A stretch of 63,128 bases of DNA, the filler included, from Folioceros fuciformis (taxonomy: Eukaryota), in the NCBI GenBank assembly GCA_049999805.1. It is 4 parts of 4 records of this genome, joined end to end, with 100 filler letters (N's around TTAATTAATTAA, not from the genome) between each part and the next. Parts side by side here need not be neighbours in the genome. Positions count along the whole stretch, not along the records: positions 28,340 to 55,399 come from JBNGIO010006034.1; 3 more parts are not named here. One strand, given 5' to 3'. The notes below the pieces were generated by a model that worked only from the letters and a program-made list of their open reading frames with translations, was not told where the DNA came from and searched no databases. Both the position numbers and the translations under genes were made by a program. This document shows positions 7,474 to 62,565 of the stretch, one piece after another. How positions within the stretch are numbered: the stretch's first letter is position 1; every line of letters begins with the position of its first letter.

Positions 7474-7633
7474 TCCATTCAAGTACGTGACCTCACCATC
7501 ACCGTTTGTCCTGAGTGGTGGATCGCATCGCAATCCTCCACCACAGGTAGATAATGGTTCTCATCATCCAAAACCATCCAGTTTGCCAAAAGCATTGCGC
7601 GAGGTCGTCACTTGCGCTGCGGCTCCAGGCACG

Positions 7634-25349: not shown

Positions 25350-27830
25350 AATGGAGTCGCGGAGCAGAAGATACAAAGCCTTTTGGAAGCAGCCAAGTGC
25401 ATGTTGTTTCACAGTGGCTTGCAGGTCAACTTTTGGGGAGAGGCTGTCATGACAACAACCTATGTGTTGAATAGAGTTCCGACAAAGGCCGTACCTAGTA
25501 TGACACCAGAGGAAGCTTGGTCTGGTATAAAACCTGATATCCAACATTTGAGGGTTTTTGGTTCCGTGGTCTACGCTCGTATCCCGAAGGAGAGCCGGAC
25601 CAAATGGGATGCTAATGCAACGAAGTGTCTCGTGCTTGGCTATTCAGATGCAGTGTAAGGCTATAGGCTATACAATCTTACTACGAAGAAGGTCTTTTTT
25701 AGCAGGGACGTTGTTTTTAGGAGGTTGTCGAGTTGATGCCTGGAGTGGGCCCTTCAGATGTTCCATCTGCCAGAGATAGCGGTGTGCCTTCTCCAACTAG
25801 CCGCCACCTTGACCTGCCTGATCCGATGCCTGACGACTCTTCTCAACCTTGTGACATAGGGGGGGAAGGGGGAGACACTCCTAATGTCCCTACGGTTGAA
25901 GACGTTGTTGGAGCCTTACCTCTAGCTGCAGATGTAGATTGCGACATCGAGGGGGGCAGGAGTGAAGCTTCCGATGTTTCTGAAGAAGGAGCAGACTATC
26001 CTGTTATAGCACCACAATCGGAATTACGTAGATCCACCAGGTCGCGTAAGCCTTCTCAAAGGCTTATAGACTCCATCAATGGATGTGTACAAGAGGAGCT
26101 AGCATGTTTTACAGATGTTGAAGAACCCCAAAGCCTAACAGAAGCGTTACAAGGTCCAAAAGCAAAGGAATGGAGAAAAGCTGTAGATAGTGAGTACAAC
26201 TCACTCATCAAAAATAAAACATGGACAATAACTCCTCTACCTTCTAGAAGGAAAAGTATAGGGTCTAAATGGACCTTCAAGATCAAGCGAAAGGCCGACG
26301 GTAGCATAGAACAATACAAGGCGAGGTTAGTAGGGAAAGGGTATACGCAAGTCCTCGATGTGGACTATACTGACACTTTCTCTCTTGTTGCTAAGATAGC
26401 ATCTATCCGAGCCCTTCTCACTATCGCAGCTGCCTTCAATATGGAGATACATCATATGGATGTTCAAACCGCTTTTTTTAATGGTGATCTAGATGAAGAA
26501 ATATATATGGAACAACCAGAAGGGTTTGAGGTACCAGGACAAGAAGGCGAAGTTTGTAAGCTGCAAAAGGCTCTTTACGGTCTCAAACAATCAGCCCTTG
26601 CTTGGTATCGTAAGCTCTATAATCACTTACAGTCTAAAGATTTCAAGAGAACTAGCGCTGATTGGAATATATATGTGAAGCAAGTGCAAGACATGGGCAA
26701 GCTCCATTATTTCTTAGGAATAAAGGTAGCAAGACAAAGGATCAACAGGGTAATCTCCTTAAGTCAGCAAACATATGTGGAGAACATACTGGAGCGTTTT
26801 GGAATGCAAGATTGTAAACCGATAAGAACGCCCATGATCCTCAACAAGAAACTGTCAAAGGAAGCAAATCCTACAAATGAAAACATGACAGAAAAAAGTA
26901 GACAAAAATCTTTACCAGCGTACTGTTGGCTGTCTCACCTATTTGGCAACAAGCACAAGGTCAGACATCACAGAGGCATTGGGGGTTGTGAGCCAATTCT
27001 TGGTCAATCCTCAAGAACAGCATTATCAAGCAGTCAAGAGAATTTTCAGGTATCTACAGGGTACAAAGCACTGGAAATTGACTTACCTAAATCAAAAAGA
27101 AGAAGCCTAGGTTGTCGGATTTTGCAATTCAGATTGGGCAGGAGATATCGATACCCGCAAGTCTACCACTGGATATGCCTTCATGCTATTCGGAGAAGCC
27201 ATCTCGTGGAGCAGTAGACATCAACCCAGTGGGAGTGTTAAGCATGATTTATGTTGAGATTAATTAGTGCTAATCTAGCTTATTGAGTTTGTACTAATTA
27301 GTAGTAAGAGTGATTAAGGTTATGATTAATATATATAGCTTATTAGACTTTGTTATGTTAGGCAGAAAAGGTATTTTAGGGTTTGGGGTCATTTATCCCA
27401 TATTGGGCACGAAATGAGAGTGCCACCTATAGGTCCATAAAAGAAGGGATGAACCCACCTAGTATTTGTTGTCTAACTCCCTCTTCACTTGTATTGTGTT
27501 GTTTCTTGTAATTCTCCTTTTATTTGAGTTTAAGAGTTTAAGAGCCTTGTTATAGTGCTCTTATTTTTGCGATTCTGCATCTTGCTTCAACTAACTTGTT
27601 CTAACCTCTTTCGAGTGGCGGGGGTGACATCTCAACAAGTAGCACTATCCTCTACAGACGCAGAGTACATGGCAACCTCAGGTGACATCTCAACAAGTAG
27701 CACTATCCTCTACAGAAGCAGAGTACATGGCAACCTCAGCTGCAACAGTGGAAGCCATATGGCTTCGTAGATTGCTCGAAGAGATGGGATTCAAGCGGAA
27801 GGGAGCGACCCTCATCTTCAACGACAACGA
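25350..27830 (+). mobile_element. Ty1/copia pol fragment (integrase end, RT, RNase H), degenerate
   Basis: FWGEAVMTTTYVLNRVPT, KARLVGKGYTQ, HMDVQTAFFNGDLDEEIYMEQPEG, LYGLKQ, VALSSTEAEYMA; YVDD region deleted. Confidence 0.95.
27252..27637. mobile_element. Solo-LTR-like insertion inside the Copia RNase H
   Basis: TGTTGAGAT...ATCTCAACA terminal inverted repeat interrupting the coding sequence; left end may be 27236. Confidence 0.65.
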
Positions 27831-28239: not shown

Positions 28240-28339
28240 NNNNNNNNNNNNNNNNNNNNNNNNNNNNNNNNNNNNNNNNNNNNTTAATTAATTAANNNNN
28301 NNNNNNNNNNNNNNNNNNNNNNNNNNNNNNNNNNNNNNN
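28240..28339. other. Artificial scaffolding linker (N44-TTAATTAATTAA-N44); also at 55400-55499 and 61320-61419
   Basis: Same 100-nt linker three times. Confidence 0.97.
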
Positions 28340-30036: not shown

Positions 30037-31755
30037 ATGGAGTCAGGCGGTCATGGCTTAAGCAAAGCAGATGCACAGCGAGAGTCAGGTGACCGCAGTT
30101 CAGAGAGTGGGTTGGCAACGCAGCAGTTGGGACAGCAGTATCATCCACAACAGCAAGAATCTCAGTCGAGGGCCCTTTCGGGGTATGGAGCACCCTCAGG
30201 TTCGGCAATATTAGAGCAGCAACAACAGCACCAGCAACTCCATTCTCACCAACATTCCCTCCAGCAGCAGCAACAGCAGAGCCCAGGGCCTCACATATCG
30301 GGGGGTACCCTTGCGCAGGCAATGGCAGCCATGGGCGGTGCAGGTGACCCACCTCTAGGGATGTCTAACATCGGGCAGGAGTACTCACAGGAGCAGTCCG
30401 GTGGAGGCATGTCTGGCTTGGGTGGGCTTTCCATGTCTCGAGGTAATCAGCAAGAAATATCGAGTGGAGCAGCAGGAAGTGGAGCAGTCCAGGGTCCTCA
30501 GGATCAGGGTCAAACCCCTCCTAAGAAGCCTGCACCCAAGAGATCCTCCACGAAGGATAGGCATACCAAAGTGGATGGTAGGGGTCGCCGCATTCGAATG
30601 CCGGCCACCTGTGCAGCTAGGATTTTCCAGCTTACCAGAGAGCTGGGTCACAAGTCCGACGGCGAAACGATCGAGTGGTTGCTACAGCAGGCCGAGCCAG
30701 CCATTATTGCTGCCACTGGAACGGGTACGGTACCGGCTTTGAGTAGTACATCTATGCAAGGGCGCATGAGCCAGCAGGCCAGCATGTCGGCTGGGGCCGC
30801 CCGTCACCCTACGCTCCATTCAGGCATGGGGATCGGAGGGATTGGACCTTCAGAAGCCGACCGGATGCAGGAGCATGTACGTCGAGGCGAGTGGGAGCCC
30901 GATGACCACCGCGTACTGGAGGTGAACCGCGCCATGGAGGCGAACAGGAGGATCGCCGCTATCAGTCACGGGGACTCTGGACTTAGTCCCCACGAAGTCA
31001 TGTTCCAGCACGAAGGCTTAATTAGCTCCGACGCTGGAGAAGCGTTAGGGCTGGGAGAGTCGTCCGACAGCAGGTTCAAGAAACGACACAGGGGCGGGGG
31101 CCCGCTCGCGCGTCTTAAAGACGACCCGGAGCCTGTCCGGCCCGTGCGGTCGCAGGCCAGGCCTGGAGTCCCTGGCGGGATATCGCAGCCGGGCTCTACA
31201 GGCATCATGTCTGCCATGTGGGCGGCGATGGGCCCTGCGAGTAGCGGATCCATGCCTGGAACCATCTGGATGTTGCCTGTGAGTGCCGGCTCCAACACAC
31301 CAGCCGTCATGTCCGGCCCCTCGGAGCAGCAACTCTGGACGGCGTACCCCCCAGGAGCCTCTGGCGGCGCCATGTATAGAATGGCAGCTCCTGCTGGGAC
31401 ACAGATTCAGCTGGGGTCTGGCGGGAGCGGGCAGTCGAATCTGAATTCACCCAGTAGCCTGATAATGCCGCTGACAGCGTTGCCCAGTGGGATGCCCAGA
31501 ATCAGCATTTCCGGGACTTCGGGCCTGGAGCTACAAGGTGGACACCAAGGTCACCATCCCCTGGGCAATATGCTGCTACAGCAGGGTTCGCAGCAGCTTT
31601 CCGGGGCTGGGTTGGGACTGGCAGGTGACGGTCATCTGGGTATGCTGGCTGCGTTGAATGCCTACACCCGAAACCTCAACCCCGACCACCAACAACATAT
31701 GAGCTCTGCGCATCAGCAGGGGGATAGCGGCGACGATAACACCAGCTCGCAATAA
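30037..31755 (+). CDS. TCP: Class I (PCF-type) TCP transcription factor, intronless
   Basis: [59 protein letters not shown]; first ATG 30037. Confidence 0.97.
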
Positions 31756-33494: not shown

Positions 33495-34808
33495 TGTTGA
33501 GCTATCGAGCTCTATATGAGCTAAACTCATGTGGTGTTAGTTATCCCAGTTGGGTTCATACTAGACTAGTTCTAGTTATTAGTGAACTTAGGATAGTGTA
33601 GATTATCCCATATTGAACTTGGAAGTTGTGTAGCCCTAAATGTACTACTTAAATGGAGACCTCGGACCTCCATAGTAAGACAGTGGTGATGTGTATTGTT
33701 TTCATGGTTGTGATCACCAATACCACCCTCTCTTCTCTCCTCTCCTCTCCTACACTTGCACGTAGACTGGAGTCGATCCTATTGACATGGTATCAGAGCC
33801 CGGTGCAGGCGATCTTGCTCGGCGTAGGAGGTGCTGCAAGAGGCAGCAAGAGTGCACACCAGAAGCTAGAGCAGCTACGAGAAGTTGGAGCAGCTTGGAG
33901 GGAGATCGGCAGCAAGCGTCCCGGCAGCTAACTCTCATATCGGTGTGTGTAGGAAGTGAGGAGAAGGGCGACAAGGCCCTGTCAGCTTACTAGACTAGCT
34001 GTTGATCCCCAGAGCTCTGTGGAAGGGCTGACAAGTGGAGGCAACAACTGCAATAGCCTCAGCAGCTGCAAGAAAGTGTGCTAACCCTAGCTTGGCAGCA
34101 GGGAAGGAATTGACAGGAAATCTCACGGGAGCTTTGTGGGCAGACAGTCAAGAGTCTGTAAGGACACGGAGCTTGAGACAATCTGGTTCACGCAAGGCAG
34201 CGTGATTCCGCACCAGATTGCTCTTAGGAAGAAGAGACTTAAGGTCTTGTGAGTAAAACTCCAGTCAGAAGCAGTCTGGTTCTTTCAGACATTTATCAGG
34301 TGTGAGTACTCAAGAAAGGATTGAGTGTCAACCTTGAGTGGTGGCAAGAATGGCCAGTGACAGTATTAACCAGATCGTACAGGAGAAGCTGGACAAAAAC
34401 AACTTCCATGCCTGGAAGTTTCGTTTTACAAACTTTCTTATGGGAAAGGGTTATTGGGACTACATTGATGGGGAGCATGAAAAACCCCCTGTAGTACTTG
34501 AACGGAATGCAACAGCGGAGCAGATTAAGGCGCTGAAGGATTGGAGTCAAGGATCTCGGAAGGTCATGTATTGGCTGTCAATCAGCATTCATGACACCAT
34601 GATTGGGCACATATAGGATGCAGAGTCGCCCAAAGAAGCATGGGATGAGTTGGTAAAACTCTATGAGACTAACACGAAGGCGAGAAAACTGCAGTTGAAG
34701 AATGACTTTCAACACAGTTATGAAGAAGAACTTATCAATCAATGAGTACGCNNNNNNNNNNTCTCCTCTCCTACACTTGCACGTAGACTGGAGTCGATCC
34801 TATTGACA
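33495..34808 (+). mobile_element. Ty1/copia element: 5' LTR 33495-33787, PBS, gag start, gap, 3' LTR end
   Basis: TG...CA LTR; tRNA-iMet PBS TGGTATCAGAGC 33788-33799; gag KLDKNNFHAWKFR..GYWDYIDG; identical LTR 3' end 34762-34808; TSD GTTTA. Confidence 0.93.
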
Positions 34809-36965: not shown

Positions 36966-39875
36966 TCACGGTCGACCCTTGCAAGTGCAACAACCATTGG
37001 CAAATCGATGGACACGGTACCCATCCCTGACAACAATGTCCCTCCGCTCAAGCCTGGACATAATTTCCGTGGAACTATGACAGTCACTGCACATGCGTAG
37101 ATTCTTCGTTACCATCAGAGGTGTCCCACTTGGAGTGTTCAAGAGACCAAATGCCAGAGCTAGTTTCTCAGCATGCCCACAAAGCACCTCTTCCTTGTCT
37201 TTTTCAGTCAGTGGCTTCAACACCAACCTTGTGTGAGGTGAATGGCCTCCTTCCTGCTTCACACGTGCATTTGTGCTCTCAGCCTTCACCCCAACGTCGT
37301 CTCTCCTTTCTCCCACCACGAATCTATGCAACTGCTTATTCACCTCGATGGTCGCCACTGCAGGTTTTTTATTAGCTCCTGCTGCCATCCTTCGTCTTTC
37401 GACCCTATCCACATCAGCCCACCTTCCTGCAGCTGCGTACGCAGTGGCCATGAGCACATAAGCGGGCGCCTCCTGGGGGTCCAACCTAATAATGGCGTCG
37501 AAACACCACGTCGCCCTCTCCAGATCCCCATGACTTTTGCACGCATTCAACAACGACGTCAAGCCCACAACATTACTTTCGACCTCGCATGACACAAGCA
37601 TATTCGTTGCCTCCTCTAGATGGCCTGCACGCCCAAGAAGATCAATCATGCAGGTGCAATGCTCGATAGTTGGTTTGATGCCATGCTCTTCAGCCATTGA
37701 ATGAAAGTGCTTTCGACCCTCGTGGACTAGGCCCCCATGACTGCATGCAGCTAGAAGGCAGGTAAAGGTAGCATCATCAGGCTGAACTCCGGCAACCAAC
37801 ATCTCCTCGAAACAAGCTAGTGCTCTCTGACCATCATCGCAAGTACCATACCCAGAGATTAGGGCATTCCATGTCACCACATTTTTTGTCTTCATGCCAT
37901 CAAAAACCCGCCGTGCATCTTCCACTTCACCACATTTTGCATACATGTCCACCAGGCAGGTGCCCAACACCACGTAATCGAGCAGTCCTCTTTCTACGAT
38001 GTGCGAGTGCAGCTGCTTGCCCTTCTGTAAAGCACCAGTGCTCCCACAGGCCTTCACAAGGCAAGCAAGAGTAACATTGTCAGCCAGAATAAGACCTCCT
38101 TGCTCCATTTGCTCATACACTACAAGTGCCTCTTGGCCGAGGCCTTGCTGTGCATACCCAGCAATCAGCGCCGTCCATGTAACCACATTCTTTGTGGCCA
38201 AGCTGTCAAAGACCTGGCGTGCGTCTTTCAGCTCACCACATTTTGCATACATGTCCACCAGGCAGGTGCCTAACACCACATTATCCAACAGTCTTCTTTC
38301 CACGATCTGTGAGTGCAGCTGCCTTCCCTGTTTTAAGGCACCACTACCTGCACAGGCCTTCAGAAGGCAAGCAAAAGTGACATGGTCAGCCAAAACGAGG
38401 CCCTCCTGCTCCATCTGTCCGTACACGAGAAGGGCCTCATGTCCAAGCCCTTGCAAGGAATACCCAGCAATCAGGGCCGTCCACGTCACCACATCCTTCG
38501 TCGACAAGCTTTCAAATACCATGCGTGCATCTTCTAGTTCGCCACATTTCGCATACATGTCTACCAGGCAGCTGCCCAACATTTTGTCATGAAGGAGTCT
38601 TCTTTCGACGATCTGTGAGTGCAGCTGCCTGCCCTTCTGTAAAGCACCAGTGCTTCCGCAGGCGTTCAGAAGGCAAGCAAAAGTGACATGGTCAGCCAAA
38701 ATCATGTCCTCTTCCTCCATTTGATCATACAAAACTAGCGCCTCTTGGCTTAGGCCCTGCCGTGCATACCCAGCAATCAGGGTGGTCCATGTCACTACAT
38801 CCTTCTTGGCCAAACTTTCAAAAACCTGGCGTGCATCTTCCATTTCGCCACATTTGGCGTACATGTTCACCAGGCAGGTGCCAACCAACAAGTCAGGAGG
38901 AATGCCACTGTGCAACACATCACAGTGTACTTTCCTGCCACATTCCAAGTCGGTCGCTAGTGCGCAAGCTTGGAGGGCAGCCACAAAGACCTGACAATTC
39001 GCCTTCACTCCTGACCTATGCATCTCATGATACAGTTGTACGGCCTCCTTAGGTTTCCCTTGCTTTGCATGTGCTGAGATTATGGAAGACCACATGAAGG
39101 CATTCGGTATGGCCACCCGGGTGAACACATCCATGGCCTCCTGTAGCCTACCTCCGCACGCATACATGCGCAAGGTATGGTTCCCCAAGTATGCATCCGA
39201 CTCGTACCCAAGTTTGACGATGAGGTCATGAACTCGTCGTCCCAGAACCAGATCCTTCTTCGCGGTACACTGTTTCAGCAAAATGCAGAACATAGACTGG
39301 CAAACGGGAGAGTCTGTCAGCGTCAGAGATTCTAGGCATCCAACGGCCTCGGAAAGTTTCCCCTGTTTACATAGCGTAACCACGGTTCCGGCCGTTGCAA
39401 CTCCCATTTCCGATCCTGCGTGCCTGTGACGTTCAGGCTCATCCGACGATGTGGACTTAGAAGGAGAGGCACGATGACCCATTTGCATATCCATGGAAAC
39501 AAGCCTCTCCTCGACCCAAGCTGGCTTGAACAGGTTGCTCAGCCACAATCCTTCGCCGGACCCCATACGCCTGAAGTCCGGCGAACGGGAGCTCTTCTTG
39601 TCTCTCCTGTTGTCCCACCACATGGTAGGCTCTAGAAAAAATTGTTGCCACAAGTGTTCCTGCTCCTGCTCCTGGCGACGACCAGCCTTGACAGATCCGT
39701 CCCCGCACATGCTTCTGGGCATTGGACGCGTTGGGCTCCTTGCAGTGCTGCATCGCGAGGCAGCGTCATTTGCGTCGTGTGGATTCCAGAAGATGACATG
39801 AGACTGAGCTCCTTTACTGAGACCAGGCGCAATTTGCTGGATCCAGGACGATTCCGGTACCCAGACTGTGGTCAT
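36966..39875 (-). CDS. PLS-PPR-DYW:KP (GRP-type) editing factor with N-terminal PDF motif
   Basis: KKPAVATIEV in place of PG box, HAEKLA...CSDC, terminal GRP; N-terminal LWQQFFLEPTMWWDNRRDKKSSRSPDFRR..GEGLWL. Confidence 0.95.
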   Translation of the reverse strand: MTTVWVPESSWIQQIAPGLSKGAQSHVIFWNPHDANDAASRCSTARSPTRPMPRSMCGDGSVKAGRRQEQEQEHLWQQFFLEPTMWWDNRRDKKSSRSPDFRRMGSGEGLWLSNLFKPAWVEERLVSMDMQMGHRASPSKSTSSDEPERHRHAGSEMGVATAGTVVTLCKQGKLSEAVGCLESLTLTDSPVCQSMFCILLKQCTAKKDLVLGRRVHDLIVKLGYESDAYLGNHTLRMYACGGRLQEAMDVFTRVAIPNAFMWSSIISAHAKQGKPKEAVQLYHEMHRSGVKANCQVFVAALQACALATDLECGRKVHCDVLHSGIPPDLLVGTCLVNMYAKCGEMEDARQVFESLAKKDVVTWTTLIAGYARQGLSQEALVLYDQMEEEDMILADHVTFACLLNACGSTGALQKGRQLHSQIVERRLLHDKMLGSCLVDMYAKCGELEDARMVFESLSTKDVVTWTALIAGYSLQGLGHEALLVYGQMEQEGLVLADHVTFACLLKACAGSGALKQGRQLHSQIVERRLLDNVVLGTCLVDMYAKCGELKDARQVFDSLATKNVVTWTALIAGYAQQGLGQEALVVYEQMEQGGLILADNVTLACLVKACGSTGALQKGKQLHSHIVERGLLDYVVLGTCLVDMYAKCGEVEDARRVFDGMKTKNVVTWNALISGYGTCDDGQRALACFEEMLVAGVQPDDATFTCLLAACSHGGLVHEGRKHFHSMAEEHGIKPTIEHCTCMIDLLGRAGHLEEATNMLVSCEVESNVVGLTSLLNACKSHGDLERATWCFDAIIRLDPQEAPAYVLMATAYAAAGRWADVDRVERRRMAAGANKKPAVATIEVNKQLHRFVVGERRDDVGVKAESTNARVKQEGGHSPHTRLVLKPLTEKDKEEVLCGHAEKLALAFGLLNTPSGTPLMVTKNLRMCSDCHSSTEIMSRLERRDIVVRDGYRVHRFANGCCTCKGRP

Positions 39876-40244
39876 GGCTCAGAGATCACAGTCTGACAAT
39901 GCGAGTCTGAACAATAGACCTTGGCACAAGGTCTCATGTCCTCTCTTGTGCATCACTTGCTTGAGGGATGGTGATAGTGCAGTGCAGTGGGTACCCTGAA
40001 GTTGGTTTGCCTTCGTTTCGGACAGAAACCTGTTGAACAAGTTAGCTACGGGCCTCTTCGTGACGGGCTCAAAAAACCTGCTGTACACTACTCCGGAGAG
40101 AGATCCGGTCGATCCTGATGTTAGGATGAGTGTTGGCCGCCCAGGTCCTCCACATGTCTTAACAATAGTCAGGGATGGAGCTCATGAAGCACTGTGCTCT
40201 GGCGACCGCGCTTGACCAGAGTTGCCCTCGTGGGCATGATTTTC

Positions 40245-40880
40245 TCAGGGCTGACCCTTACAGCTGCAAGGGCCAGCGGCGAATCGGTGTACACGGTACC
40301 CATGCATCCCTTACTGTGCACAAACAATGTCCCTCCCTCTGTTCAAGCCTTAACACCATCCCCGTGGGGGCTATCTATGGCATTCACTGCACATAGTACC
40401 AAAGGTGTTGGAACCAGCTGGAGTGTTCAAGACACCGGACGCCAGAGCCAGACAAAAGTTTCTTTGCATGCCCACAAAGCACATGTCCCTTTCCCCTCTC
40501 ACACAATGGCCTCGACATCTACATTGTGTGAGAGGAACGTGCCCCCCTTCCTGCTTCAAACGCGAATTCGCGCTCTCTACCCGTAGGGCAATTATCCTCT
40601 TTTGGGCTGGGCTGGGACGGGCCGGGCCTGGCCGGCCCGGGAAAGAGAGGCACCACACTAGTACAGTTACTACCCATCTCCATGTGCGTATCCAAGGACA
40701 CGAGCACGTGCTGCCCATCAGCCCAAGCTGCGACCAACATGTTGTTCAAAGTCAGGACATCGTCGAACCCCTCACGCCGAAAGTCAGCCGAACGGGAGCT
40801 CTTCCTTTCTCGTCTCGTCTGTCGGCCACACTGCGGTCTCTCAACTCGTCTCGCCCGACAACACAACAGGGTCCCCAACC
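40245..40880 (-). pseudogene. Remnant joining a PDF motif almost directly to a GRP-type DYW tail
   Basis: RKSSRSADFRREG..LTLNNMLVAAW, then VESANSRLKQEGGHVP...GVLNTPAGS...GYRVHRFAAGPCSCKGQP*. Confidence 0.8.
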
Positions 40881-41462
40881 ACAGGCTGCGTTGAAATTGG
40901 AAGTGCTGGGCTGGCATCCCTTCCCTACACTGCTGCACCTGCCGGCTCCCTCAAGTGACGGGAGTGTAAGTGAGGGGGGTTGGGGGGGGGGGGGGCTCCT
41001 GATAGGATCCCTGTCCTCACCCTTTTTTGCTTTGTACAGAACGGGTTCCGTGGCCACTGTGTGCCTATGTTCAGAGACTGCAGTTGGAAACTGTCTCACA
41101 ACAAACAGACTAGGACGAGATCGAGGTGCAGGGGTACGGTACCGTCGATGGCTACGCTACCGGAGGGAAGGGACGTGCAGGGCGTATTCTTCCTTCCCGT
41201 GCTTTCCAAAGCAAGCACGTTGTGGTTCGAAGTTGTCATACACAAACTGATCTTCAGTAACGCATAAGTGGAGTTCTAGAGACTATATCCTCCCGGGATC
41301 CTTCCGGGGATGCCTTGGAATTCCCACACATCTGTGTTACAACGAGATGTGAATCTCCGTTGGCCATCCTTGTCCATGCCTCAGTTTGAACAGGACACAC
41401 TTGGCAAAACACCATCACCCAGGAACTAAAGCAATGACCTTGCCGTACAAGCTTCGTTCTTC

Positions 41463-41970
41463 TCACGGTCGACCCTCACAGCTGCAAGAACCACCTGCCG
41501 AATCGACGCAGGCGCAGGCGCAAGCGCTACCCATCTTTTCCAACAATGTCTCTGTTCAAACGTTGACATGATCTCAGTGGAACTGTGGCACCAATTCCAC
41601 ATGCGTAGCTTCATCGTTACCTCCAGGGGAGTGCTCAAACGCCCGAGCTACTTGCTCAGCATGCCCACAAAGCAAACCGTCTTCTAACTTCTCATACACT
41701 GGCCTCCATATCAAACTTGTGTGCGGTGAGCGGCCTTCCTTCCTTCCTTCCTTCCTCCCTTAAACGTGCATCCCAGCTCTCAGCCTTACGCGCGATACCC
41801 ACCCTTCTTTCTCCCAAATCAAACGCATGTACCTGCTCCTTCACCTCAATGGTCGCCACCGCAGGTTTCTTGTTAGCTACCGCTACTTTCTCTGGGTCTC
41901 AATCCTTTCTACGTCGGTCCACCTCCTCCCTGCATCTCCGTAGACATTGGCCACGAGCACATACGCAGAA
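41463..41970 (-). pseudogene. E2-DYW:KP (GRP) fragment
   Basis: ANKKPAVATIEVKEQVHAF...CHSSTEIMS...GSCSCEGRP* with frameshifts. Confidence 0.85.
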
Positions 41971-41975
41971 CCAGG

Positions 41976-42130
41976 ATCAGACGTGGCAACAGGTTTTCAG
42001 GACCTCCCCGTGGGATGGGACAGCAAACGAGCTCACAGGGGATTTCGATCGCCTCACTTCCGACCTAACGGATACGGCCAGGTCGTGTGGCTAAACAGCT
42101 TGCAGCTAGTGTCCTTGGATATGCACGAGG
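41976..42130 (+). pseudogene. Decayed PDF-motif fragment upstream of the 42203 gene
   Basis: DQTWQQVF/QDLPVGWDSKRAHRGFRSPHFRPNGYGQVVWLN..LVSLDM. Confidence 0.7.
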
Positions 42131-42202
42131 GCCGTGGTCCCTCTCCTTCTGATCCGAGCACATGGGATTAAGCCTGAATCTGTCAGGCGTGCAGAATCGC
42201 GA

Positions 42203-45200
42203 ATGGCCTCCATGTGTAGCGCTATACGAGGCCCATCACTTCCACTTCCGATACGACGCATGGGGGTGAATGACATATCCAGCGGCGATGGTCGTCGCCA
42301 GGAGGAGCAAGAGTGGTGGCAACACGTCATTCTGGACCCTACCCTGTGGCAAGATCACATACGGGGGAAGAAGAGCTCCCGTTCGCCTGACTTCCGACGC
42401 AAGGGCTCTGGTGAGTTTCTGTGGTTGAGCAACCTGTTCAAGCCAGCTTGGGTTGATGAGCAGCCCGTTTCCTTGGATGTGCTCATAGTCTATGGTGCCT
42501 CTCCCTCCAAGTTTTCCTATCCAGACAAGCATGAACCTGGCAGGCGTGCACGATTCCAAATGGCTTCAACCGTCGGCATGTTATGTCAGCAGGGAAAGCT
42601 TGCTGAGGCTGTCCAAACCCTGGAATCGCTGGCGCAATCAGACTCTGCAATTTCTCTGTCGCTGTTTCACACTGTTCTGAAACTGTGCATAGCCAACAAG
42701 GATATGGTTGTGGGTCGACGAGTACATCACCTCACTCTTAAACTCGGGTATGAGTGGAATGCATGCTTGGGGAACCTAATCTTACGCATGTATGCTTGTC
42801 TAGGTCGACTAGAGGACGCAATGGACGTGTTCACCAGGGTGGGAAAACTAGATGTCTTCATGTGGCATTCCATAATCTCCGCACACACCAAGCATGGCAA
42901 ATCTAAGGAGGCTATACAACTGTACCACGAGATGCGAAGGTCAGGAGTCAGGCCAAATGGTCACGTCTTTGTAGCTGCCCTTCAAGCTTGCGGATCTGCA
43001 GCCGACTTGGAATCTGGCAGGAAAGTGCATTGTGATATTTTTCACAGTGGCATTCCCACTAACCTGTTCGTGGGTAACTGCCTGGTTGACATGTATGCAA
43101 AATGTGGCGAACTGATGGATGCACGCCAGGTTTTCGACAGTATGGCCACGAAGGATGTAGTGACATGGAATACCATGATATCTGGGTATGCGAAATGCGG
43201 TGAAATGAAAGATGCACACCAGGTTTTTGACAGAATGAACTCAAAGAGTGTGGTGACATGGAATGCCCTCATATCTGGATATGCCGAGCAAGGGCTAGGA
43301 CATCATGCTCTTGCTCTGTATCGGCAGATGGAGGAGGATGGGCTGATTTCGGGTAACCATATTACATTCGCTAGCCTTCTGAAGGCGTGTGCAGCGGCGG
43401 GTGCCTTACAGAGGGGCAGGCAGTTGCACGCGCTGATCGTTGAAAGAGGGCTAATGGATGGAGCAGTGCTGGGCACGTGTCTGGTGGACATGTATGCAAA
43501 ATGTGGTGAACTGGATGATGCACGACATGTTTTTGACAGCTTGGCCACAAAGGATGTGGTGACATGGAATGCCCTAATTTCTGGGTATGCTGACCAAGGG
43601 CTCGGACATGAGGCGTTTGCTGTCTATGCACTAATGGAGCAGGAGGGCATCAGTTCGGCTGATCATGTCACGTTTACTTGCCTGCTGAAGAGCTGTACAA
43701 GCAGTGGGGACTTGCACAAGGGCGGGGCCCTGCACTCACTGATTGTTGAAAGGGGACTGTCGGATAATGTAGTGGTGGGCAACTGCCTGGTGGGCATGTA
43801 TGCAAGATGTGGTGAAGTGAGAGATGCACGCAAGGTTTTTGACAGCTTGACCACAAAGGATGTGGTGACATGGAATGCCTTAATTGCAGGGTATGCACAG
43901 CAAGGTCTTGGCCAAGAGGCACTTGGTGTGTATGAACACATGGAACAAGAGGGCCTCACTTTGGCTGATGATGTGACTTTTTCTTGCCTTCTGAAGGCCT
44001 GTGGAAGCACCGGTGCGTTACAGAAGGGCAGGCAGCTGCACTCACTGATTGTCGAAAGAGGCCTGCTGGATAACGTAGTGCTGGGCAACTGCCTGGTGGA
44101 CATGTATACAAAATGCGGTGAAGTGGAACATGCACGCCGAGTCTTTGACAGAATGGCCGCAAAGGATGTGGTGACATGGACGGCGCTGATTGCTGGGTAT
44201 GCACAGCAAGGTCTGGGAATTGAGGGGCTTGTTTTGTATGGACAAATGGGGCAGGAGGGCCCCGTCATAGCCAATCATGTTACTTTTGCTTGCCTTCTCA
44301 ATGCCTGTGCGAGCACTGGCGCCTTAGAGATGGGCAGGCAGCTGCACTCGGAGATGGTGAAAATTGGTGTACTGGAAAATGTGGTGTTGGGCAACTGCCT
44401 GGTGGACATGTATGCAAAATGCGGTGAATTGGAAAACGCACAGCAGGTGTTTGACAGCTTGGCCATGAAGGATGTGGTGACATGGAATGCCCTGATTGCC
44501 GGGTACGCTCAGCAAGGTCTCGGACTTGAGGCGCTTATTGTGTACGGCCGAATGGAGCAGGAGGGCCTTATTTTGGCTGACCATGTCACTTTCTGCTGCC
44601 TTCTGAAGGCCTGTGGAAGCACTGGTGCCTTGCAAAAGGGCAGGCAGCTGCACTCACAGATCTTGGAAAAGGGACTCCTGGACGTGGTAGTGTTGGGCAA
44701 CTGCCTGGTGGACATGTATGCCAAATGTGGTGAACTGGAAGACGCACGCCAGGTTTTTGACAGCATGAACACCAAGACTGTGGTGACTTGGAATGCCATG
44801 ATATGTGGGTATGGTGTATGTGATGATGGCCGTAGGGCGCTGAGCTGTTTTGACGAGATGTTAGAAGCCGGTGTCCAACCCGATGGGGCTACTTTTTCTT
44901 GCCTTCTAGTGGCTTGCAGTCACGGTGGTCTAGTTTACGAGGGTCGCAACCACTTCGCTTCTATGTCTCATCTGTATGGCATCGTACCTACGGTTGAGCA
45001 CTTCAATTGCATGATTGACCTTCTTGGGCGTGCGGGTCATCTGGATGAGGCTGAGAAGTTGCTCTTGTCACTCGAGGGTCAGAGGAATGTTGTGGGCTTG
45101 AGGTCCTTGTTGCATGCCTGCAAAAGTCACGGGGATTTGGAGAGGGCGACGTGGTGTTTTGAAAGTATTGTCAGCCTGGAACCTATGGAGGCATCCGCCT

Positions 45201-45694
45201 ATGTGCTCATGGCCAATGCCTACGCAGATGCAGGTAGGTGGACCGATGTACACAGGGTTGAAACATTGAGAAGGGCAGCAGGAGCTGGCAAAAAACCCGC
45301 AACGGCTAGTGTGGAGGTGAATAAGGAAGTGCACACATTTCTGGTGGGGGAAAGGAGAGAGGATGTTGCAGTGAAAGCGGAAAGTACAAGTGCACGGCTG
45401 AAACATGAAGGAGGGTATGTTCCTCACACAAACCTGGTGTTGAAGCCAGTGTGTGAGAAGGAAAAAGAAGACGCGCTTTGTGGTCATGCGGAAAAGCTAG
45501 CTCTCGCGTTTGGTCTCTTGAACACTCCGAGTGGCACACCTCTGGTGGTAACCAAGAATCTACGCATGTGCAGTGACTGCCACAGTTCCACACAGATCAT
45601 GTCAAGACTCGAACACAGAGACATTGTTGTGAGGGATGGATACCGAGTGCATCGATTCGAAGCTGGTGCTTGCAGTTGTGAGGGTCGGCCGTGA
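42203..45694 (+). CDS. PLS-PPR-DYW:KP (GRP-type) editing factor with N-terminal PDF motif
   Basis: WWQHVILDPTLWQDHIRGKKSSRSPDFRRKGSGEFLWL; PLS array; KKPATASVEV, HAEKLA, CSDC, terminal EGRP; first ATG 42203. Confidence 0.95.
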   Translation: MASMCSAIRGPSLPLPIRRMGVNDISSGDGRRQEEQEWWQHVILDPTLWQDHIRGKKSSRSPDFRRKGSGEFLWLSNLFKPAWVDEQPVSLDVLIVYGASPSKFSYPDKHEPGRRARFQMASTVGMLCQQGKLAEAVQTLESLAQSDSAISLSLFHTVLKLCIANKDMVVGRRVHHLTLKLGYEWNACLGNLILRMYACLGRLEDAMDVFTRVGKLDVFMWHSIISAHTKHGKSKEAIQLYHEMRRSGVRPNGHVFVAALQACGSAADLESGRKVHCDIFHSGIPTNLFVGNCLVDMYAKCGELMDARQVFDSMATKDVVTWNTMISGYAKCGEMKDAHQVFDRMNSKSVVTWNALISGYAEQGLGHHALALYRQMEEDGLISGNHITFASLLKACAAAGALQRGRQLHALIVERGLMDGAVLGTCLVDMYAKCGELDDARHVFDSLATKDVVTWNALISGYADQGLGHEAFAVYALMEQEGISSADHVTFTCLLKSCTSSGDLHKGGALHSLIVERGLSDNVVVGNCLVGMYARCGEVRDARKVFDSLTTKDVVTWNALIAGYAQQGLGQEALGVYEHMEQEGLTLADDVTFSCLLKACGSTGALQKGRQLHSLIVERGLLDNVVLGNCLVDMYTKCGEVEHARRVFDRMAAKDVVTWTALIAGYAQQGLGIEGLVLYGQMGQEGPVIANHVTFACLLNACASTGALEMGRQLHSEMVKIGVLENVVLGNCLVDMYAKCGELENAQQVFDSLAMKDVVTWNALIAGYAQQGLGLEALIVYGRMEQEGLILADHVTFCCLLKACGSTGALQKGRQLHSQILEKGLLDVVVLGNCLVDMYAKCGELEDARQVFDSMNTKTVVTWNAMICGYGVCDDGRRALSCFDEMLEAGVQPDGATFSCLLVACSHGGLVYEGRNHFASMSHLYGIVPTVEHFNCMIDLLGRAGHLDEAEKLLLSLEGQRNVVGLRSLLHACKSHGDLERATWCFESIVSLEPMEASAYVLMANAYADAGRWTDVHRVETLRRAAGAGKKPATASVEVNKEVHTFLVGERREDVAVKAESTSARLKHEGGYVPHTNLVLKPVCEKEKEDALCGHAEKLALAFGLLNTPSGTPLVVTKNLRMCSDCHSSTQIMSRLEHRDIVVRDGYRVHRFEAGACSCEGRP

Positions 45695-46643
45695 GCCTGG
45701 CTGGTGAAGTCGTTGTTTGGGATGGATGATGCGGTGTGCATGGAATAGCAAATTGGTTGCAGCAGTTGTTGGGAGGCCACCTGGATCGTGACACTGAGTG
45801 ATGATAAATACAATACACCCATAACTGACGACGTGGAGATGGTATTGCCCTTGACCTGTCCCTGGAGGTTTAGGCGGTAGCACCATTAAGACGGGTAGAT
45901 GAGTACGGTGGGACAGACAGTACAAACTCTTGACTTGCTAATCACATCCGCATGTATCTACTCTTTTCTTCAATCCCTTGTTCGGGTATGTATGTTCGTT
46001 CTCCTGAAAAGAAATTTGTCCATTCCAAACCCCTTCGCAAGGCAGCGAACAACATGTCGTGTCGTCTGCAGGTCCCTTCCCTAGGCAAGGCAAGCTCAAC
46101 CAAAGCTCTCCTCCACAGGCTGCATTTCCTGTCCTTTCCTTGCGTCGACGGCTCAAGCATTCCTCGAAAAGTCCCCTGCCCTGCCGGGAAGTCCCGAGTG
46201 ATACCTCCTGAACCCTGCCTACCGGTTAAGATAACCAGGGTCAGCCTATCGCGTGCTACCGTGTGCTAACGTGCCAGTTCGCTCTGCCGGGAAGGCTGCA
46301 CGAGCGACTACCAGCAGTCTTAGGAGCCGACATGCCTCGCCAAGACTTGTAGAAAACCTACTTTTCTACCGGACTTTTCTGTGGCCACCAAAATGGCTGC
46401 GGGCTGTGGCGGCAGGATCACTACGGTTTGCACAGACAAACATGTCTTTTGGGTATGTCACGCGACAGGATGAGGCTAGCGGCTAATCCAGACAGCAGCT
46501 GCCAGTGTACGCAGGTAGACGTGGCGGTATATGGATAGTCATGCTTGGCCCAATATATGTACGGTATACGGTTGTGGCTGACAAGATGACTTGACAATGA
46601 AAACCTAGGAATTTCCGTGGTAGGTACGCGACAGCGCTAACTA

Positions 46644-47369
46644 CAGACCCTCTAATTGGGAACAATTGGGAGTAGCAAAATCCTCCCATTTAGAAAGGTT
46701 CTCATTTTGGTATTTTTATTTTTAAAAAATAAAAAAAATAATAAAAATTTTGAAAGAGCTTAAAAGTTTTCAAAAAATCCAAAATGCTCCTTCATACAAC
46801 ATAGATGCCAACCTAATTCTAGTTTGTCGGATTAAAATAGTTTAGGGTTGCATGCTTGTGCGGCAGCTTGGGTGACATTGTTCCTACACATCAAAGAGAA
46901 CGGGTAAGGAACACACACAAAATATCTCACAGCAAGACAACAACTTACAATACCATAAGACAACTTACAACACCATAAGACAACTTGTACAATGAAACAA
47001 CTTATGTACTAGGAACAACGCTTCTGATCACAAAGCATAGTGTACAGAACTACTACATATATAGGCTCAATCTCAATGACTGTCTATGTTTTATGATATA
47101 ATCTTGATAGCCTTTAACTTGACATAATCTCAATAACTCATGATTTAATCTTGATAAGATCATTTTCTCAACTTTTTTTTATTTTTTTGAATATATATTT
47201 TCCCTTTTACAGAGGTGTACTTACATTAAATGTTTGGGAGACATGTTCCCATTTACAAATTAGAGGGGTTTTCCATTTAGCATGTAGCACATTCAAGGGA
47301 GTAAGCCCGGGCGTTCCATCTAAGGGGGAATTCCCATTTATAGGGGTCCCACTTAGAGGGGTCTGACTG
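46644..47369. mobile_element. Probable non-autonomous TIR element (MITE-like)
   Basis: cagaccctctaattggg ... cccacttagaggggtctg imperfect terminal inverted repeats; AT-rich non-coding interior; TA-containing flanks. Confidence 0.6.
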
Positions 47370-47517
47370 TAGCTAGCTAGCTGTGCAGTGCAGCACAAAT
47401 GATTTTATCATCAGATACCTCCAGTGGTGAAAGAATCCGTACCTGATCCTACTTGTCATCCTCTCGGCAGTCAGCCTTGTCGTGCTCTTGTTATGCTTCT
47501 CGTGCCCCACCATAAAA

Positions 47518-50500
47518 CTATGAACCACTCCGTCCACATCTGCCCACTAGCTCTGACCGGGGTTGCTTCCATGCCCTCATCCGTATTCTCCTCTCCTGGA
47601 TATTCTGTGCTTGCATCCACATCCCAGCACCTCTGTATATGTTTGAAATCAAGACATAGGCTGTGGCATCTCTCTTATCTAGATTTACTGCTTCGTGGAA
47701 AGCATGGTGTCCCACCTCCACGCTGCTCCATTTTCCACAAGCGCCCAATAGGGTGTGCCAAACAGCAGCAGTAGGCACCATAGGCATTGTCCTTACCAAC
47801 GTCAGTGCGTCATTTAGCTGCCCTGCACGACACAGGAGATCCACCATACATGTGTAGTGGGCCTCCGTGGGAACAATGCTGCAGTGTCCGGTCAAGGCCT
47901 CAAAGTACTCAAACCCCTCCTTCACCAAACCCAAATGACTGCAAGCTATTAGGACACTGAGCAGCGTGATGGCGTCTGGCTGTATGCCATCCTCTTGCAT
48001 TCTCTGGACCAGTTCAAACACCATTTCACTGTCCCCCTGACAGCTGTAGCCTCCAACCAAGGCATTCCAGGCAACAACATCTCTTTCGGGGAGCGCGTCA
48101 AACACAAGTTGTGCATCAGCCGTACTGCCTGATTTTCCATACATGTTTATCAAACTGCCAGCTACAAGCGTATCAGCCTCCAGGCCCCGTTCTAAAGCCT
48201 GCGCATGTAGCTGTCGTCCTAGAAATAAGGCCGCCACATTTGCACATGCCTGGAGGAGGCAAACAAAAGTCACAGAATTTGGTGCCGCCAGGCCTTCCTC
48301 TTGCATACATCTGTAGAGCTCAAGCGCCTGCTGGCCCATGCCCTGCTGAGAGTAACCTGCTATCATCACGGTCCATGTCACCACATCTTTTTCACCAAGT
48401 GCATCGAACACCCTCTGCGCATTTGCCAAGCTACCACACTTTGCATACATGTTCAGCAAGCTGCTCACTACAAGGACATCGGTATCCTTCCCCTGCTCTC
48501 TGATCTGCATATGCAGATGCATTCCCCTCTCCAATCCAACGGTTCCCATGCTTGCACATGCCTGCAGGAGGGTCACATACGTCACAGAGTCGGCTACAGA
48601 AATGCCCTCCTGTTGCATAGTGCTGTAAACATGAAGGGCTTCCTGGCCCAACCCCTGCTGAGAATATCCTGCTATCATAGCATTCCAGATCACCACATTT
48701 TTTTCAGAGAGTTCATTGAACAGTCTCCGAGCCTCCTCCAAGCTGCCACACTTTGCATACATGTCCACTAAACTGCTAGCTACAAACAGATCGGCTTGGT
48801 GTCCTCCTTCCCTTATTTGCGCATGCAGAAGCTGACCCTTCTCCAATGCTGGGGCGCCCACACTTGCACATGCTTGCAGAAGGCACACAAATGTCGTGGG
48901 GTCAGGCACATCCATGCCACCTTCTTGCATGGCACTATACACACCAAGGGCTTCCTGGCCCATGCCCTGCTGGGAATATCCTGCTATCATGGCAGTCCAC
49001 ATTACCAAATCCTTTTGAACCAGACCATCAAACACTAGCTGAGCATCGTCCAAGATACCGCACTGTGCATACATGTTTACCAGGCTGCTTGCTATAAAGA
49101 CATCAGCCTCATGTCCTTGTTGTCGAATCTGCTCATGAATATGCCTTCCTTTCTCCAATGCCGGAACGCCCACACTTGCGCACCCCTGCAGGAGGCAGGC
49201 AAATGTCACTGCATCAGGTGCGACAATGCCCTCTTCTTGCATGCAATCAAAAAGGCGAAGGGCTTCCTCGCCCCTGCCCCGCTGAGAATATCCTGCTATC
49301 AAGGCGTTCCACGTCACTACACTCTTCTGAACGAGTCCATCAAACACCCTCTGAGCGGCCTCTAAGCTGCCACACTTTGAATACATGTCTACCAAAGTAC
49401 TCGCTATTGACACATCAGATTCATGTCCTCCTTCCGTAATTTGTGCATGAAGATGCCTGCCCTTATGCAACGCTGGGGCGCCCATACTTGCACACGTCTG
49501 CAGGAGGCACACAAAGGTATTTGCATCGGGTACACCCATGCCTTCACCTTGCATGGAATTGTAGAGATGGAGGGCTTCCTCGACCATACCTCGCTGAGAA
49601 TATCCTGCTATCATGGCAGCCCAAGTTAATACATTTTTCTGATCAAGTTCATCAAACAGTCTCCGAGCGTCCTCCAAGCTGCCACATTTTGCGTACATGT
49701 GTACCAAACTGTTGGCAAGAGACACATCAACTTGAAGCCCTCCGTCTCGAATCTGCATGTGAAGATACTGCCCCTCCTCCAACGCTAGCGTGCCAACACT
49801 TGCACATGCTTGCAAGAGGCACAAAAAAGTCACAGAATCGGGGACAAGGCCGCCTTCTAGTCGCATGGCCCGGTAAAGACGAAGGGCTTCCAAGCCCACG
49901 CCCTGCTTCGAATAGCCTGCTATCATAGCGTTCCATGTTACAACATTTTTTACACAAAGGTTATCAAACACACTCCTTGCATCCTCCAGGCTGCCACACT
50001 TTGCGTACATGTCCACCAAACTGCTGGCTACAAACACATCATCCTGATATCCCCGTTCTCTGATTTGCACATGAAGACTTTTCCCCTTCTCCAATGCCAA
50101 GGTGCCAACGCTTGCACATGCTTTCAAAAGGCATACAAATGTCACAGAATTGGGTACAGTCATGCCTTCATCTTCCATACGACTGTACAGCCTAAGGGCC
50201 TCCTGCCCCATGCCCTGCTGGGAATATCCTGCAATCATACAAGTCCAGGTCACCACATTTTTTTGGCGGAGTTTGTCAAACACTGCTCGAGCGCCCTCCA
50301 ACCTGCCGCACTTTGCATACATGGCCACCAGGCAGTTACAAACAAACGCATCCTGCTCAATGCCACTCGCCAACACATGGACATGCACTTGCTGGCCAAA
50401 TTTCAAGTCCGCACTCCTTGCACACGCCTGAAGGGCTGCCACAAATACATGGCCATCTGGTTTCACACTGGACCTGCCCATCCGGAGATACAATTGGATG

Positions 50501-50919: not shown

Positions 50920-50939
50920 GTCCCAAGGCAGCAAGCTGC

Positions 50940-51110
50940 GTGTGCACCAAGTATGGCGCGAAAAAGTCGTTCAAGCAGAAGACCTGGTGAGATTGCATGT
51001 GCTGTAAGTCGGGGGGAACTGAGGCTCGATTTCTATGGCCTATTGTCACGCCAAAGGGTAGGGTCTTGAGATACAAGAGTCACCTCAATGTCTCCTGGCG
51101 ACGATCCCCG
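50940..51110 (-). pseudogene. Decayed PDF motif upstream of the WW-type PPR ORF
   Basis: GDRRQE...QDPTLWRDNRP*KSSLSS/PDLQHMQSHQVFCLNDFFAPYLV with one stop and frameshifts. Confidence 0.7.
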
Positions 51111-55399: not shown

Positions 55400-55768
55400 N
55401 NNNNNNNNNNNNNNNNNNNNNNNNNNNNNNNNNNNNNNNNNNNTTAATTAATTAANNNNNNNNNNNNNNNNNNNNNNNNNNNNNNNNNNNNNNNNNNNNG
55501 GAGTTCCCCCCTCAAAGCAACGTACCGAGGCTCCTCCCTCTCGAAACATCCTACTCGGACTTCAAAACAATTGACGTACACAAAGTCTCGCGGCAGGGCA
55601 GCCAAGAAGATGGACAGATAAAGACAGTTGGTACACTCAACACCAAATCAAACACAGAGCGGAGGCAAATAATCACACACAAACCGACAAAGCGTGCCTC
55701 ATGGATCCCAGTCCAGTCCAGTCCACTCCTCTCCAGTCCAGTCCACTATCCTACCCTATCTTCCCCTT

Positions 55769-61942: not shown

Positions 61943-62269
61943 GAATAATGAAGGCTTGCCTAGCTATGGTGTCGCTGCGTGGGCTAGAAAATAGGCACTG
62001 CTTTCAGGGTTCTTGTTGTTGCCATTGCTGAGAAGCAGAAGCGTGAACACAACGTCGCTGGCAAACACGGCTGCTTCTCGTCACGAAACAAAGCAATGTA
62101 TGTGGTCACATTTGTGAAAGAAGTTTTTTGGTCCATGTGACCTGAGGCCAGGGACAAGCAACGCATCAGATTCTGTTTCTGACCAAAACCGTGGACATAA
62201 GTAGCTGTTTGTCCATTTTCTGGCCCCCACATCATGGCGAAATCCGTCTACTTGTGTTGTGGTCACAGA

Positions 62270-62565
62270 CACGATGTCAGGAGCAGCAGTGGCAACAAAT
62301 TTTCCCTGGACCCCGCAACCGGTGGGACAATCGAGGAGATAACATGAGCTCCTGCTCGCCTGTCTTCCGGCAAAGGCGCTATGGGTAATAGAAGAACATG
62401 TTGAAGTGAGCAGCATCTTTCCTTCCATGTGCAGATGGGTCATGGTGGGGAAGCCTGAACAGCCTGGCCCTGGAGTATCTGGCACAGACAGTCTCAGCCA
62501 TTTCTGGGTATGTGTTTTGCAGTGAATGTGGTGAAACTGTGTACAGTTGTGAGGGTCGACCGTGA
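62270..62565 (+). pseudogene. PDF motif joined to a CEGRP* tail (PPR array absent)
   Basis: QEQQWQQIF..RWDNRGDNMSSCSPVFR, linker patch QMGHG, then agttgtgagggtcgaccgtga. Confidence 0.75.

Follow-up and report, generated by a model that had tools for sequence, protein, structure and literature searches.

A PDF domain of the OSB type precedes the repeat array in PPR editing factors of Folioceros fuciformis and in related proteins of non-seed land plants

Introduction

PPR arrays bind RNA with their N-to-C direction running along the 5′-to-3′ strand, the DYW domain of editing factors acts just 3′ of the last PPR repeat, and other PPR proteins, PPR-SMR and PRORP among them, carry an accessory domain. 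Here we describe two editing-factor genes, gene A and gene B, in a 63,128-nt stretch of the Folioceros fuciformis genome (assembly GCA_049999805.1; four parts joined end to end, hereafter the window), whose predicted proteins bear, ahead of the PPR array, a domain that by its sequence is homologous to the PDF motif of the organellar single-stranded DNA-binding (OSB) proteins. The same arrangement recurs across a PLS-class PPR clade of non-seed land plants, and we propose that the PDF serves there as an accessory binder of single-stranded nucleic acid.

The closest described systems each share part of this architecture. Reviews present the PDF motif of OSB proteins as a 50-aa unit that follows an OB-like domain in one to four copies, and as responsible or sufficient for binding single-stranded DNA (ssDNA), which is bound in preference to dsDNA and RNA (PMC6963530, PMC4166229, PMC6451138). 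OSB proteins resemble the window proteins in the motif itself (40–50% identity to angiosperm OSB PDFs), in its variable copy number and in a presumably organellar location, and differ in domain order: OSB proteins have an N-terminal SSB or OB-like domain and C-terminal PDFs, whereas the window proteins lack an SSB domain and carry the PDF at the N-terminal end, ahead of a PPR array and a DYW domain. Because the SSB domain is missing and PPR repeats follow the PDF, the window proteins are not OSB proteins, and the PDF domain alone is held in common.

From the other side, the DYW:KP class of editing factors is described as having KP in place of PG, HAE in place of HSE and no xHP, with GRP as one of two hornwort subgroups, and the hornwort GRP factors that formed the basis of the designer enzymes KP2 and KP3 share with the window proteins a PLS array, an E motif, HAE, CxDCH, KP and GRP (PMC9478123). 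The available sections of published descriptions and designs of GRP factors give a PLS array with C-terminal domains and mention no N-terminal PDF (PMC9478123, PMC13386178). RRM-PPR, MORF-PPR and OZ fusions (PMC13386178) follow the same principle of joining a helical-repeat RNA reader to a second nucleic-acid-related module, and differ in the partner, which here is the PDF, a domain for which Pfam has no model.

Results

Two editing-factor genes share an N-terminal module

Genes A and B (Table 1) encode the same succession of parts: an acid-poor presequence, the PDF, a low-complexity linker of ~30–40 aa, a PLS-type PPR array, an E motif, a DYW:KP domain and a terminal GRP, with a single N-terminal module of about 60 aa in each. 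Pfam matches PF01535 (E = 5.7e-82), PF20431 (9e-14) and PF14432 (4e-32) in gene A, with the E_motif at aa 782–844, and the same three models in gene B (2.3e-127, 9.2e-13 and 5.5e-33). PPR repeats, the E motif and HxE...CxxC, which mark a PLS-class PPR editing factor with a DYW domain, are thus present in both proteins, and their translations carry the features of the GRP subgroup of DYW:KP factors: 'KKPA...IEV' replaces the PG box, 'GHAEKLA' is present, GRP is terminal, and the xHP triplet is absent, with no HP after 'VVGERR'. Such features would by themselves make a hornwort source of the window probable. At E ≤ 1, the Pfam scan returned no match in the first ~160 residues of either protein and no PF00436 (SSB) match anywhere in the two.

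An earlier note on this DNA, made by reading the sequence, had reported a PDF-like peptide at 39501–39653, with a second copy near 42313–42460, fused to PPR-DYW:KP enzymes. The minus strand of 39501–39653 does translate to that peptide, which forms aa 75–125 of gene A's 969-aa open reading frame (ORF); the second copy lies in gene B, for which a family hidden Markov model (HMM) gives the bounds in Table 1 and whose PDF is 65% identical to that of gene A (tblastn); and in both genes the PDF, the PPR array and the DYW:KP (GRP, HAE) domain are joined within one ORF. The best-matching read set, containing 0.67 of the words, covered the intergenic stretches 39634–40135, 40435–40934 and 41050–42180 at depth 6–14 with no differences, and because intergenic DNA is covered this set behaves as DNA; two other read sets matched only short PPR-repeat pieces, 90–95% alike, and none of the matching sets listed was of RNA.

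The module is related to the PDF motif of OSB proteins

When the 72-aa module alone (gene A aa 64–135) was searched with phmmer against 1.84 billion representative proteins, 591 proteins were matched at E ≤ 1e-3, of which 147 stayed at or below 1e-10 and 15 at or below 1e-30; many matched in several stretches (up to 13). Matches whose sources call them OSB3, OSB2 or organellar single-stranded DNA binding protein included P0014 (E = 5.7e-39), P0019 (1.2e-29), P0020 (2.1e-29), P0042 (2.6e-22), P0052 (2.2e-20), P0057 (2.4e-19) and P0094 (3.4e-13); E values were as low as 1e-79 against proteins with multiple PDFs and ran from 1e-13 to 1e-39 against named OSBs. Among the best 150 of the 591 matches, 44 had a Pfam SSB domain ahead of the matched segment, which reached Pfam's gathering score in 35 and fell below it in 9, and 9 were PPR proteins. 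The match to the OSB motif that the earlier note had described is therefore borne out, both by the named OSBs and by the SSB domains upstream.

Alignment A1, comprising 41 PDF instances with both window copies among them, yielded a profile that matched 687 proteins of the named database, and 40 of the best 120 of these were named OSB1, OSB2, OSB3 or organellar single-stranded DNA binding protein. The consensus reads LW..F..NP..WWDNR..K.NP..PDFKHK.TGEALW...P.WV. Nine columns are invariant across the 41 sequences (P36, D37, F38, W23, D25, K30, L47, W48 and W57), and all nine are kept in both window copies, which also have the ~50-aa length, the Pro-Asp-Phe signature and the flanking W/WWDNR/ALW of a PDF motif. 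Because the seed of the family HMM includes both window copies, their HMM scores (Table 1) are inflated, and the independent evidence is that from phmmer. A word-index search of the same database with the single module produced 12 candidates, none of which scored, a limit of sensitivity given the 687 proteins found by the profile. Pfam, applied to the 41 instances at E ≤ 10, gave two stray single-member matches and holds no model for the motif, so that the fusion escapes Pfam-based domain surveys. Together, these comparisons identify the window module, at the level of sequence, as a genuine PDF domain homologous to that of the OSB proteins.

By the same measure the motif family extends beyond OSB and PPR proteins, since the matches also include proteins with tandem PDFs of the same motif family and neither PPR nor SSB domains. 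P0003 (9 stretches), P0153 (many), P0006, P0007, P0011 and P0013 (green alga Sanguina aurantia) are of this kind: 500–900 aa long, they consist almost solely of tandem PDFs in 5–11 stretches. Two matches, P0045 (Coptis chinensis, 1526 aa; PDF repeats with a kinesin motor domain) and P0039 (Striga hermonthica, 1063 aa; PDF repeats with an 'Interactor of constitutive active ROPs'), probably represent merged neighbouring gene models.

PDF-PPR proteins are widespread and not tied to the DYW:KP subtype

A search with full-length gene A, followed by a scan of the best 120 PPR homologues with the PDF profile, located an N-terminal PDF in 38 of them, 35 at a domain E < 1e-10 and 3 weakly, and none in the other 82. 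Most of the 38 come from Diphasiastrum complanatum (28); Adiantum capillus-veneris contributes four (two of them weak), Ceratopteris richardii a single weak case, the liverwort Calypogeia fissa one and further assemblies the remaining four; the gymnosperm and other entries among the 120 have no PDF.

Sorted by C-terminal type, the PDF occurs on 3 of 17 HAE (KP) proteins (two GRP and one DRH: P0254, P0300 and P0306), where at least three of the PDF-less models are uninformative because they are N-terminally truncated and start inside the first PPR region; on 12 of 26 HSE proteins (PG, almost all ending in DYW); on none of 11 HCE/HVE proteins; and on 23 of 66 proteins with no DYW domain (20 strong, 3 weak). 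The association with the DYW:KP subtype expected in the earlier note accordingly fails in this profile scan, and within the window an E-type paralogue has a PDF relic just upstream. These counts bear on the idea that the PDF is tied to DYW:KP (U-to-C) chemistry, or enables the enzyme to act on ssDNA. Such a tie would suit the two intact window copies, both of which sit on GRP-type KP proteins, as well as the three further KP homologues and the preference of OSB PDFs for ssDNA (PMC4166229). It does not suit the frequency of the PDF on PG-type and DYW-less proteins, nor the designer enzymes KP2 and KP3, which edit U to C with no PDF (PMC9478123); we regard it as very improbable. U-to-C editing by the GRP type has been shown only for designer proteins, which convert U to C at about 22–26% without a PDF (PMC9478123), and because these edit without it and many natural relatives lack one, the PDF is dispensable for catalysis; we take it to lie outside the catalytic mechanism and not to be specific to U-to-C editing.

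The profile search also found eight Diphasiastrum 'hypothetical proteins' with two or three tandem PDFs ahead of the PPR array, one of which (P0183) has a canonical PG-type ...CGDYW end. In the 48 PDF-PPR proteins collected, the PDF is present once (35 proteins), twice (6) or three times (7), and in 48 of 48 the first copy stands ahead of the PPR array. It is preceded by a median of 63 aa; in the 41 proteins whose leader has 15 residues or more, this sequence is acid-poor (6% D+E, 11% R+K, 24% S+T+A). The leader is 66 aa long in gene A and about 30 aa long in gene B, and leaders of 80–190 aa occur in lycophyte proteins. Such a composition is as expected of an organellar leader, so that these sequences are transit-peptide-like by composition alone. 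The PDF-PPR architecture is consequently lineage-wide in a PLS-PPR clade of non-seed land plants rather than private to the two GRP genes. One further Diphasiastrum complanatum model, P0198 (1362 aa), has PDFs at residues ~140 and ~678, with nearly the same PPR start behind both, and looks like two tandem PDF-PPR genes fused in one gene model.

A single origin is compatible with the PDF tree

To place the PPR-borne PDFs relative to those of OSB-like proteins, a tree was built from 66 instances borne by 47 PPR proteins and 86 from SSB-bearing proteins, taking the first and last repeat of each and leaving out middle repeats and instances from proteins with neither PPR nor SSB. On this 152-row tree the PPR and SSB labels require 5 changes, against a mean of 49.5 when shuffled, of which only 1 is forced by starred branches. 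Grouping all PPR-borne PDFs in one clade is not rejected by the approximately unbiased test (p = 0.851), and the constrained tree was 35.3 log-likelihood units better than a quick free search. PPR-borne PDFs are thus compatible with one origin, compatibility and not proof being what 63 columns can provide. The simplest history would be a single ancient fusion in the PLS-PPR lineage, spread by duplication, with local gain of repeats in lycophytes and frequent, repeated loss. A first tree of 263 rows, poorly resolved and with 8 changes of the PPR label, was superseded by this one; in it the window copies belonged to a starred group made up of 7 PPR rows and one short unclassified protein.

The PDF is a predicted folded domain under purifying selection

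AlphaFold2, run with alignment A1, returned models of high predicted confidence (mean pLDDT 93.0, pTM 0.79; all five models 89–93), in which a helix (2–18), strands at 23–25 and 38–40, a bridge near 46–47 and a second helix (57–70) can be distinguished. As modelled, the PDF would form a self-contained domain in which a small beta-sheet lies between two helices. Searches for a known fold gave weak matches, mostly to helical scaffolds: Foldseek against the PDB found nothing at E ≤ 1e-3 (best E 5.9), and VIA-align over 48,161 chains reached a best Z of 4.5, with none at 5 or above. The PDF is thereby left without a nameable known fold, from which novelty of the fold does not follow. Two other candidates were set aside. 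A PDB sequence match between the C-terminal half of the profile (…GeaLWl…P.WV…) and the N-terminus of green-algal CP29 (6kac_R, 8bd3_R, 9hd7_R) had E values of 0.42–1.1 and is probably due to chance, and the top score in the ESM Atlas (0.82, phage gp49 clusters) lay below the level reached by shuffled sequences.

Weak matches to helical scaffolds would also fit a different role, in which the PDF is a protein–protein docking or oligomerisation module that would bind, for example, OSB proteins, other PDF-bearing factors or nucleoid proteins, recruiting the editing factor into a complex with no contact of its own to nucleic acid. AtOSB2 has been reported as a tetramer (PMC6963530), and the one to three tandem PDFs on PPR proteins, like the up to 13 stretches in repeat-only proteins, form a pattern typical of avidity modules. 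However, binding of ssDNA is the sole function that the reviews report for the motif (PMC6963530, PMC4166229, PMC6451138), and stacking on bases together with contacts to phosphates would explain its conserved Trp, Phe, Arg and Lys no less well; docking is, in our judgement, an unlikely explanation.

Between genes A and B, the ratio of nonsynonymous to synonymous substitution rates (dN/dS) is 0.13 in the PDF, a rough value since dS is near saturation over its 52 codons, compared with 0.22 in the PPR array, 0.16 in the E and DYW domains, 0.42 in the leader and 0.49 in the linker. The PDF is under purifying selection between the paralogues, and the contrast with its flanks is clear.

The ratio bears on the suggestion that the PDF is a remnant in decay from an ancient fusion, or belongs to an import leader that is cleaved off, with no role in the mature factor. 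The four decayed relics in the window, the 82 of 120 homologues with no PDF and the position of the domain near the N-terminus, behind leaders as short as that of gene B, would be in keeping with this suggestion. Against it stand a dN/dS as low as that of the catalytic domain, the retention of 9 of 9 invariant family columns in both copies, the identity to angiosperm OSB PDFs, the long lycophyte leaders ahead of the PDF, and a predicted structure that is a confidently folded unit, Trp- and acid-rich, unlike a transit peptide. We judge a leftover or leader improbable, more so than a docking module.

Discussion

A selected domain without an SSB partner, placed before an RNA-reading array, is best explained as a whole by a PDF that acts on PPR factors as a lineage-wide, non-catalytic accessory binder of single-stranded nucleic acid, a reading to which, by analogy with the OSB proteins, we assign a probability of roughly 60%. 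Through its conserved aromatic and basic residues, the PDF would bind single strands without regard to sequence. As PPR arrays read N-to-C along 5′-to-3′, the PDF would lie 5′ of the PPR footprint, in a region that the variable linker of ~30–40 aa could allow it to reach.

Two versions of this proposal differ in the ligand. In one, which we advance tentatively, an unspecific grip on the RNA flank would add affinity and keep the flank single-stranded. In the other, possible though the less probable of the two, a grip on nucleoid ssDNA would place the factor where transcripts emerge, thereby coupling editing to transcription. The first version is favoured by the covalent attachment of the PDF to an RNA reader, and the second by the reported ssDNA preference of OSB1/2. 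More speculatively, and in our view unlikely in this full form, PDF-PPR factors would sit on the displaced ssDNA of transcribing or replicating nucleoids, so that both C-to-U and U-to-C editing would be coupled to transcription in hornworts, lycophytes, ferns and liverworts, with the PDF as a portable affinity module; if this were true, designer PPR editors, whose efficiency is low, would become more efficient once given a PDF.

Several points weigh against an accessory binder of single strands. AtOSB1/2 prefer ssDNA over RNA (PMC4166229), which counts against an RNA ligand in particular, and the designer GRP-type editors reach the conversion given above without a PDF. The domain is absent from 14 of the 17 close KP-type and 14 of the 26 PG-type homologues, and the four decayed relics in the window indicate that it is readily lost. 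Neither Foldseek nor VIA-align hinted at a known nucleic-acid-binding fold, the PDF dN/dS carries the saturation noted with it, and the literature searched yielded no experiment on a PPR-borne PDF. Finally, the 5′ ends of genes A and B come from ORF prediction alone, and in-frame Met codons directly after the PDF in both genes make a PDF-less isoform possible.

Full-text literature searches returned no paper linking PDF or OSB with PPR proteins, although Gutmann 2020 and Gerke 2020 could mention the fusion; the co-mentions found were unrelated (a DNA-replication review and one table), and a 2026 kingdom-wide survey of domain fusions in editing factors uses 'OSB' and 'PDF' 0 times in its main text (PMC13386178). 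On this evidence the PDF-PPR fusion is unreported, a combination of two known parts, and its public copies are filed as 'hypothetical protein'. The customary picture of a PLS-class PPR protein (a targeting leader, an array and C-terminal E/DYW domains) thereby gains a conserved, selected and, by prediction, folded N-terminal domain drawn from the organellar ssDNA-binding machinery, and it does so in heavily editing lineages: hornwort-like sequences, lycophytes, ferns and one liverwort. PDF-PPR proteins offer a testable handle on the coupling of editing to nucleoids and transcription, and on the limits of affinity.

Relics and neighbouring features of the window

Six long PLS-class PPR ORFs lie within the 63 kb (4201–11281 and 36966–55085), namely the two GRP/DYW:KP genes and four E-type ORFs in which the E motif is present and Pfam finds no DYW match. 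Similarity at the start of the array (…LC..G.L.EAV..LE.L…) among the four ORFs at 36966–55085 suggests a locally duplicated family. By tblastn and the family HMM, none of the window's four other long PPR ORFs contains an intact PDF copy, and the four relics in Table 1 were detected. One belongs to a truncated pseudogene (~40371–40917, minus strand) between genes A and B, in which DYW-like remnants (…LKQEGGHVPLTQ… …NTPAGSNTF…CSECH…, with frameshifts) come almost directly after what is left of the PDF, and the PPR array is missing. That at 42016–42102 may be a decayed second repeat, and that at 50924–51068 lies just upstream of an E-type PPR ORF (47518–50919), in another frame.

Table 1. Genes, domains and PDF relics in the window, with coordinates counted along the whole stretch
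Feature	Position	Strand	Remarks
Gene A	36966..39875	minus	single uninterrupted 969-aa ORF, GRP C-terminus
PDF domain of gene A	39477..39677	minus	aa ~67-133; family HMM envelope iE 4.5e-29; contains 39501-39653
DYW deaminase-fold domain of gene A	36975..37247	minus	aa 877-967; PF14432 E 4e-32; HAE, CSDCH, GRP end
Gene B	42203..45694	plus	single 1163-aa ORF, GRP C-terminus
PDF domain of gene B	42293..42478	plus	aa ~31-92; family HMM iE 1.4e-22
DYW_deaminase domain of gene B	45413..45685	plus	aa 1071-1161; PF14432 E 5.5e-33
PDF relic, N-terminal two thirds of motif	62269..62382	plus	tblastn 2.2e-06, HMM iE 1.3e-5; no intact ORF behind
Decayed PDF relic in truncated pseudogene	40705..40818	minus	tblastn 1.6e-08, HMM iE 0.012
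Weak out-of-frame PDF-like relic	42016..42102	plus	tblastn 1.2e-06, HMM iE 0.028; ~100 nt upstream of gene B start
Weak PDF relic with in-frame stop	50924..51068	minus	tblastn 1.8e-04, HMM iE 0.046 and 0.07

The window also contains runs of N totalling 374 bases (28240–28339, 55400–55499, 61320–61419, 34752–34761 and 59943–60042), three of which are pairs of 44-N blocks with 12 bases between them; these runs resemble masked sequence more than the usual gaps of an assembly. Antisense ORFs of ~200 aa occur inside the PPR genes (37999–38592, plus strand; 43663–44268, minus strand; and others); because their repetitive sequence mirrors the PPR repeats, we regard them as by-products of the repeat structure and not as genes. 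Elsewhere, a 493-aa ORF (25736–27217, plus strand) matches the copia-type reverse transcriptase PF07727 RVT_2 (E = 8.4e-59) and represents a retrotransposon fragment, and a 572-aa ORF (30037–31755, plus strand) has a TCP transcription-factor domain (PF03634, E = 1.1e-29) together with long Gln-rich tracts.

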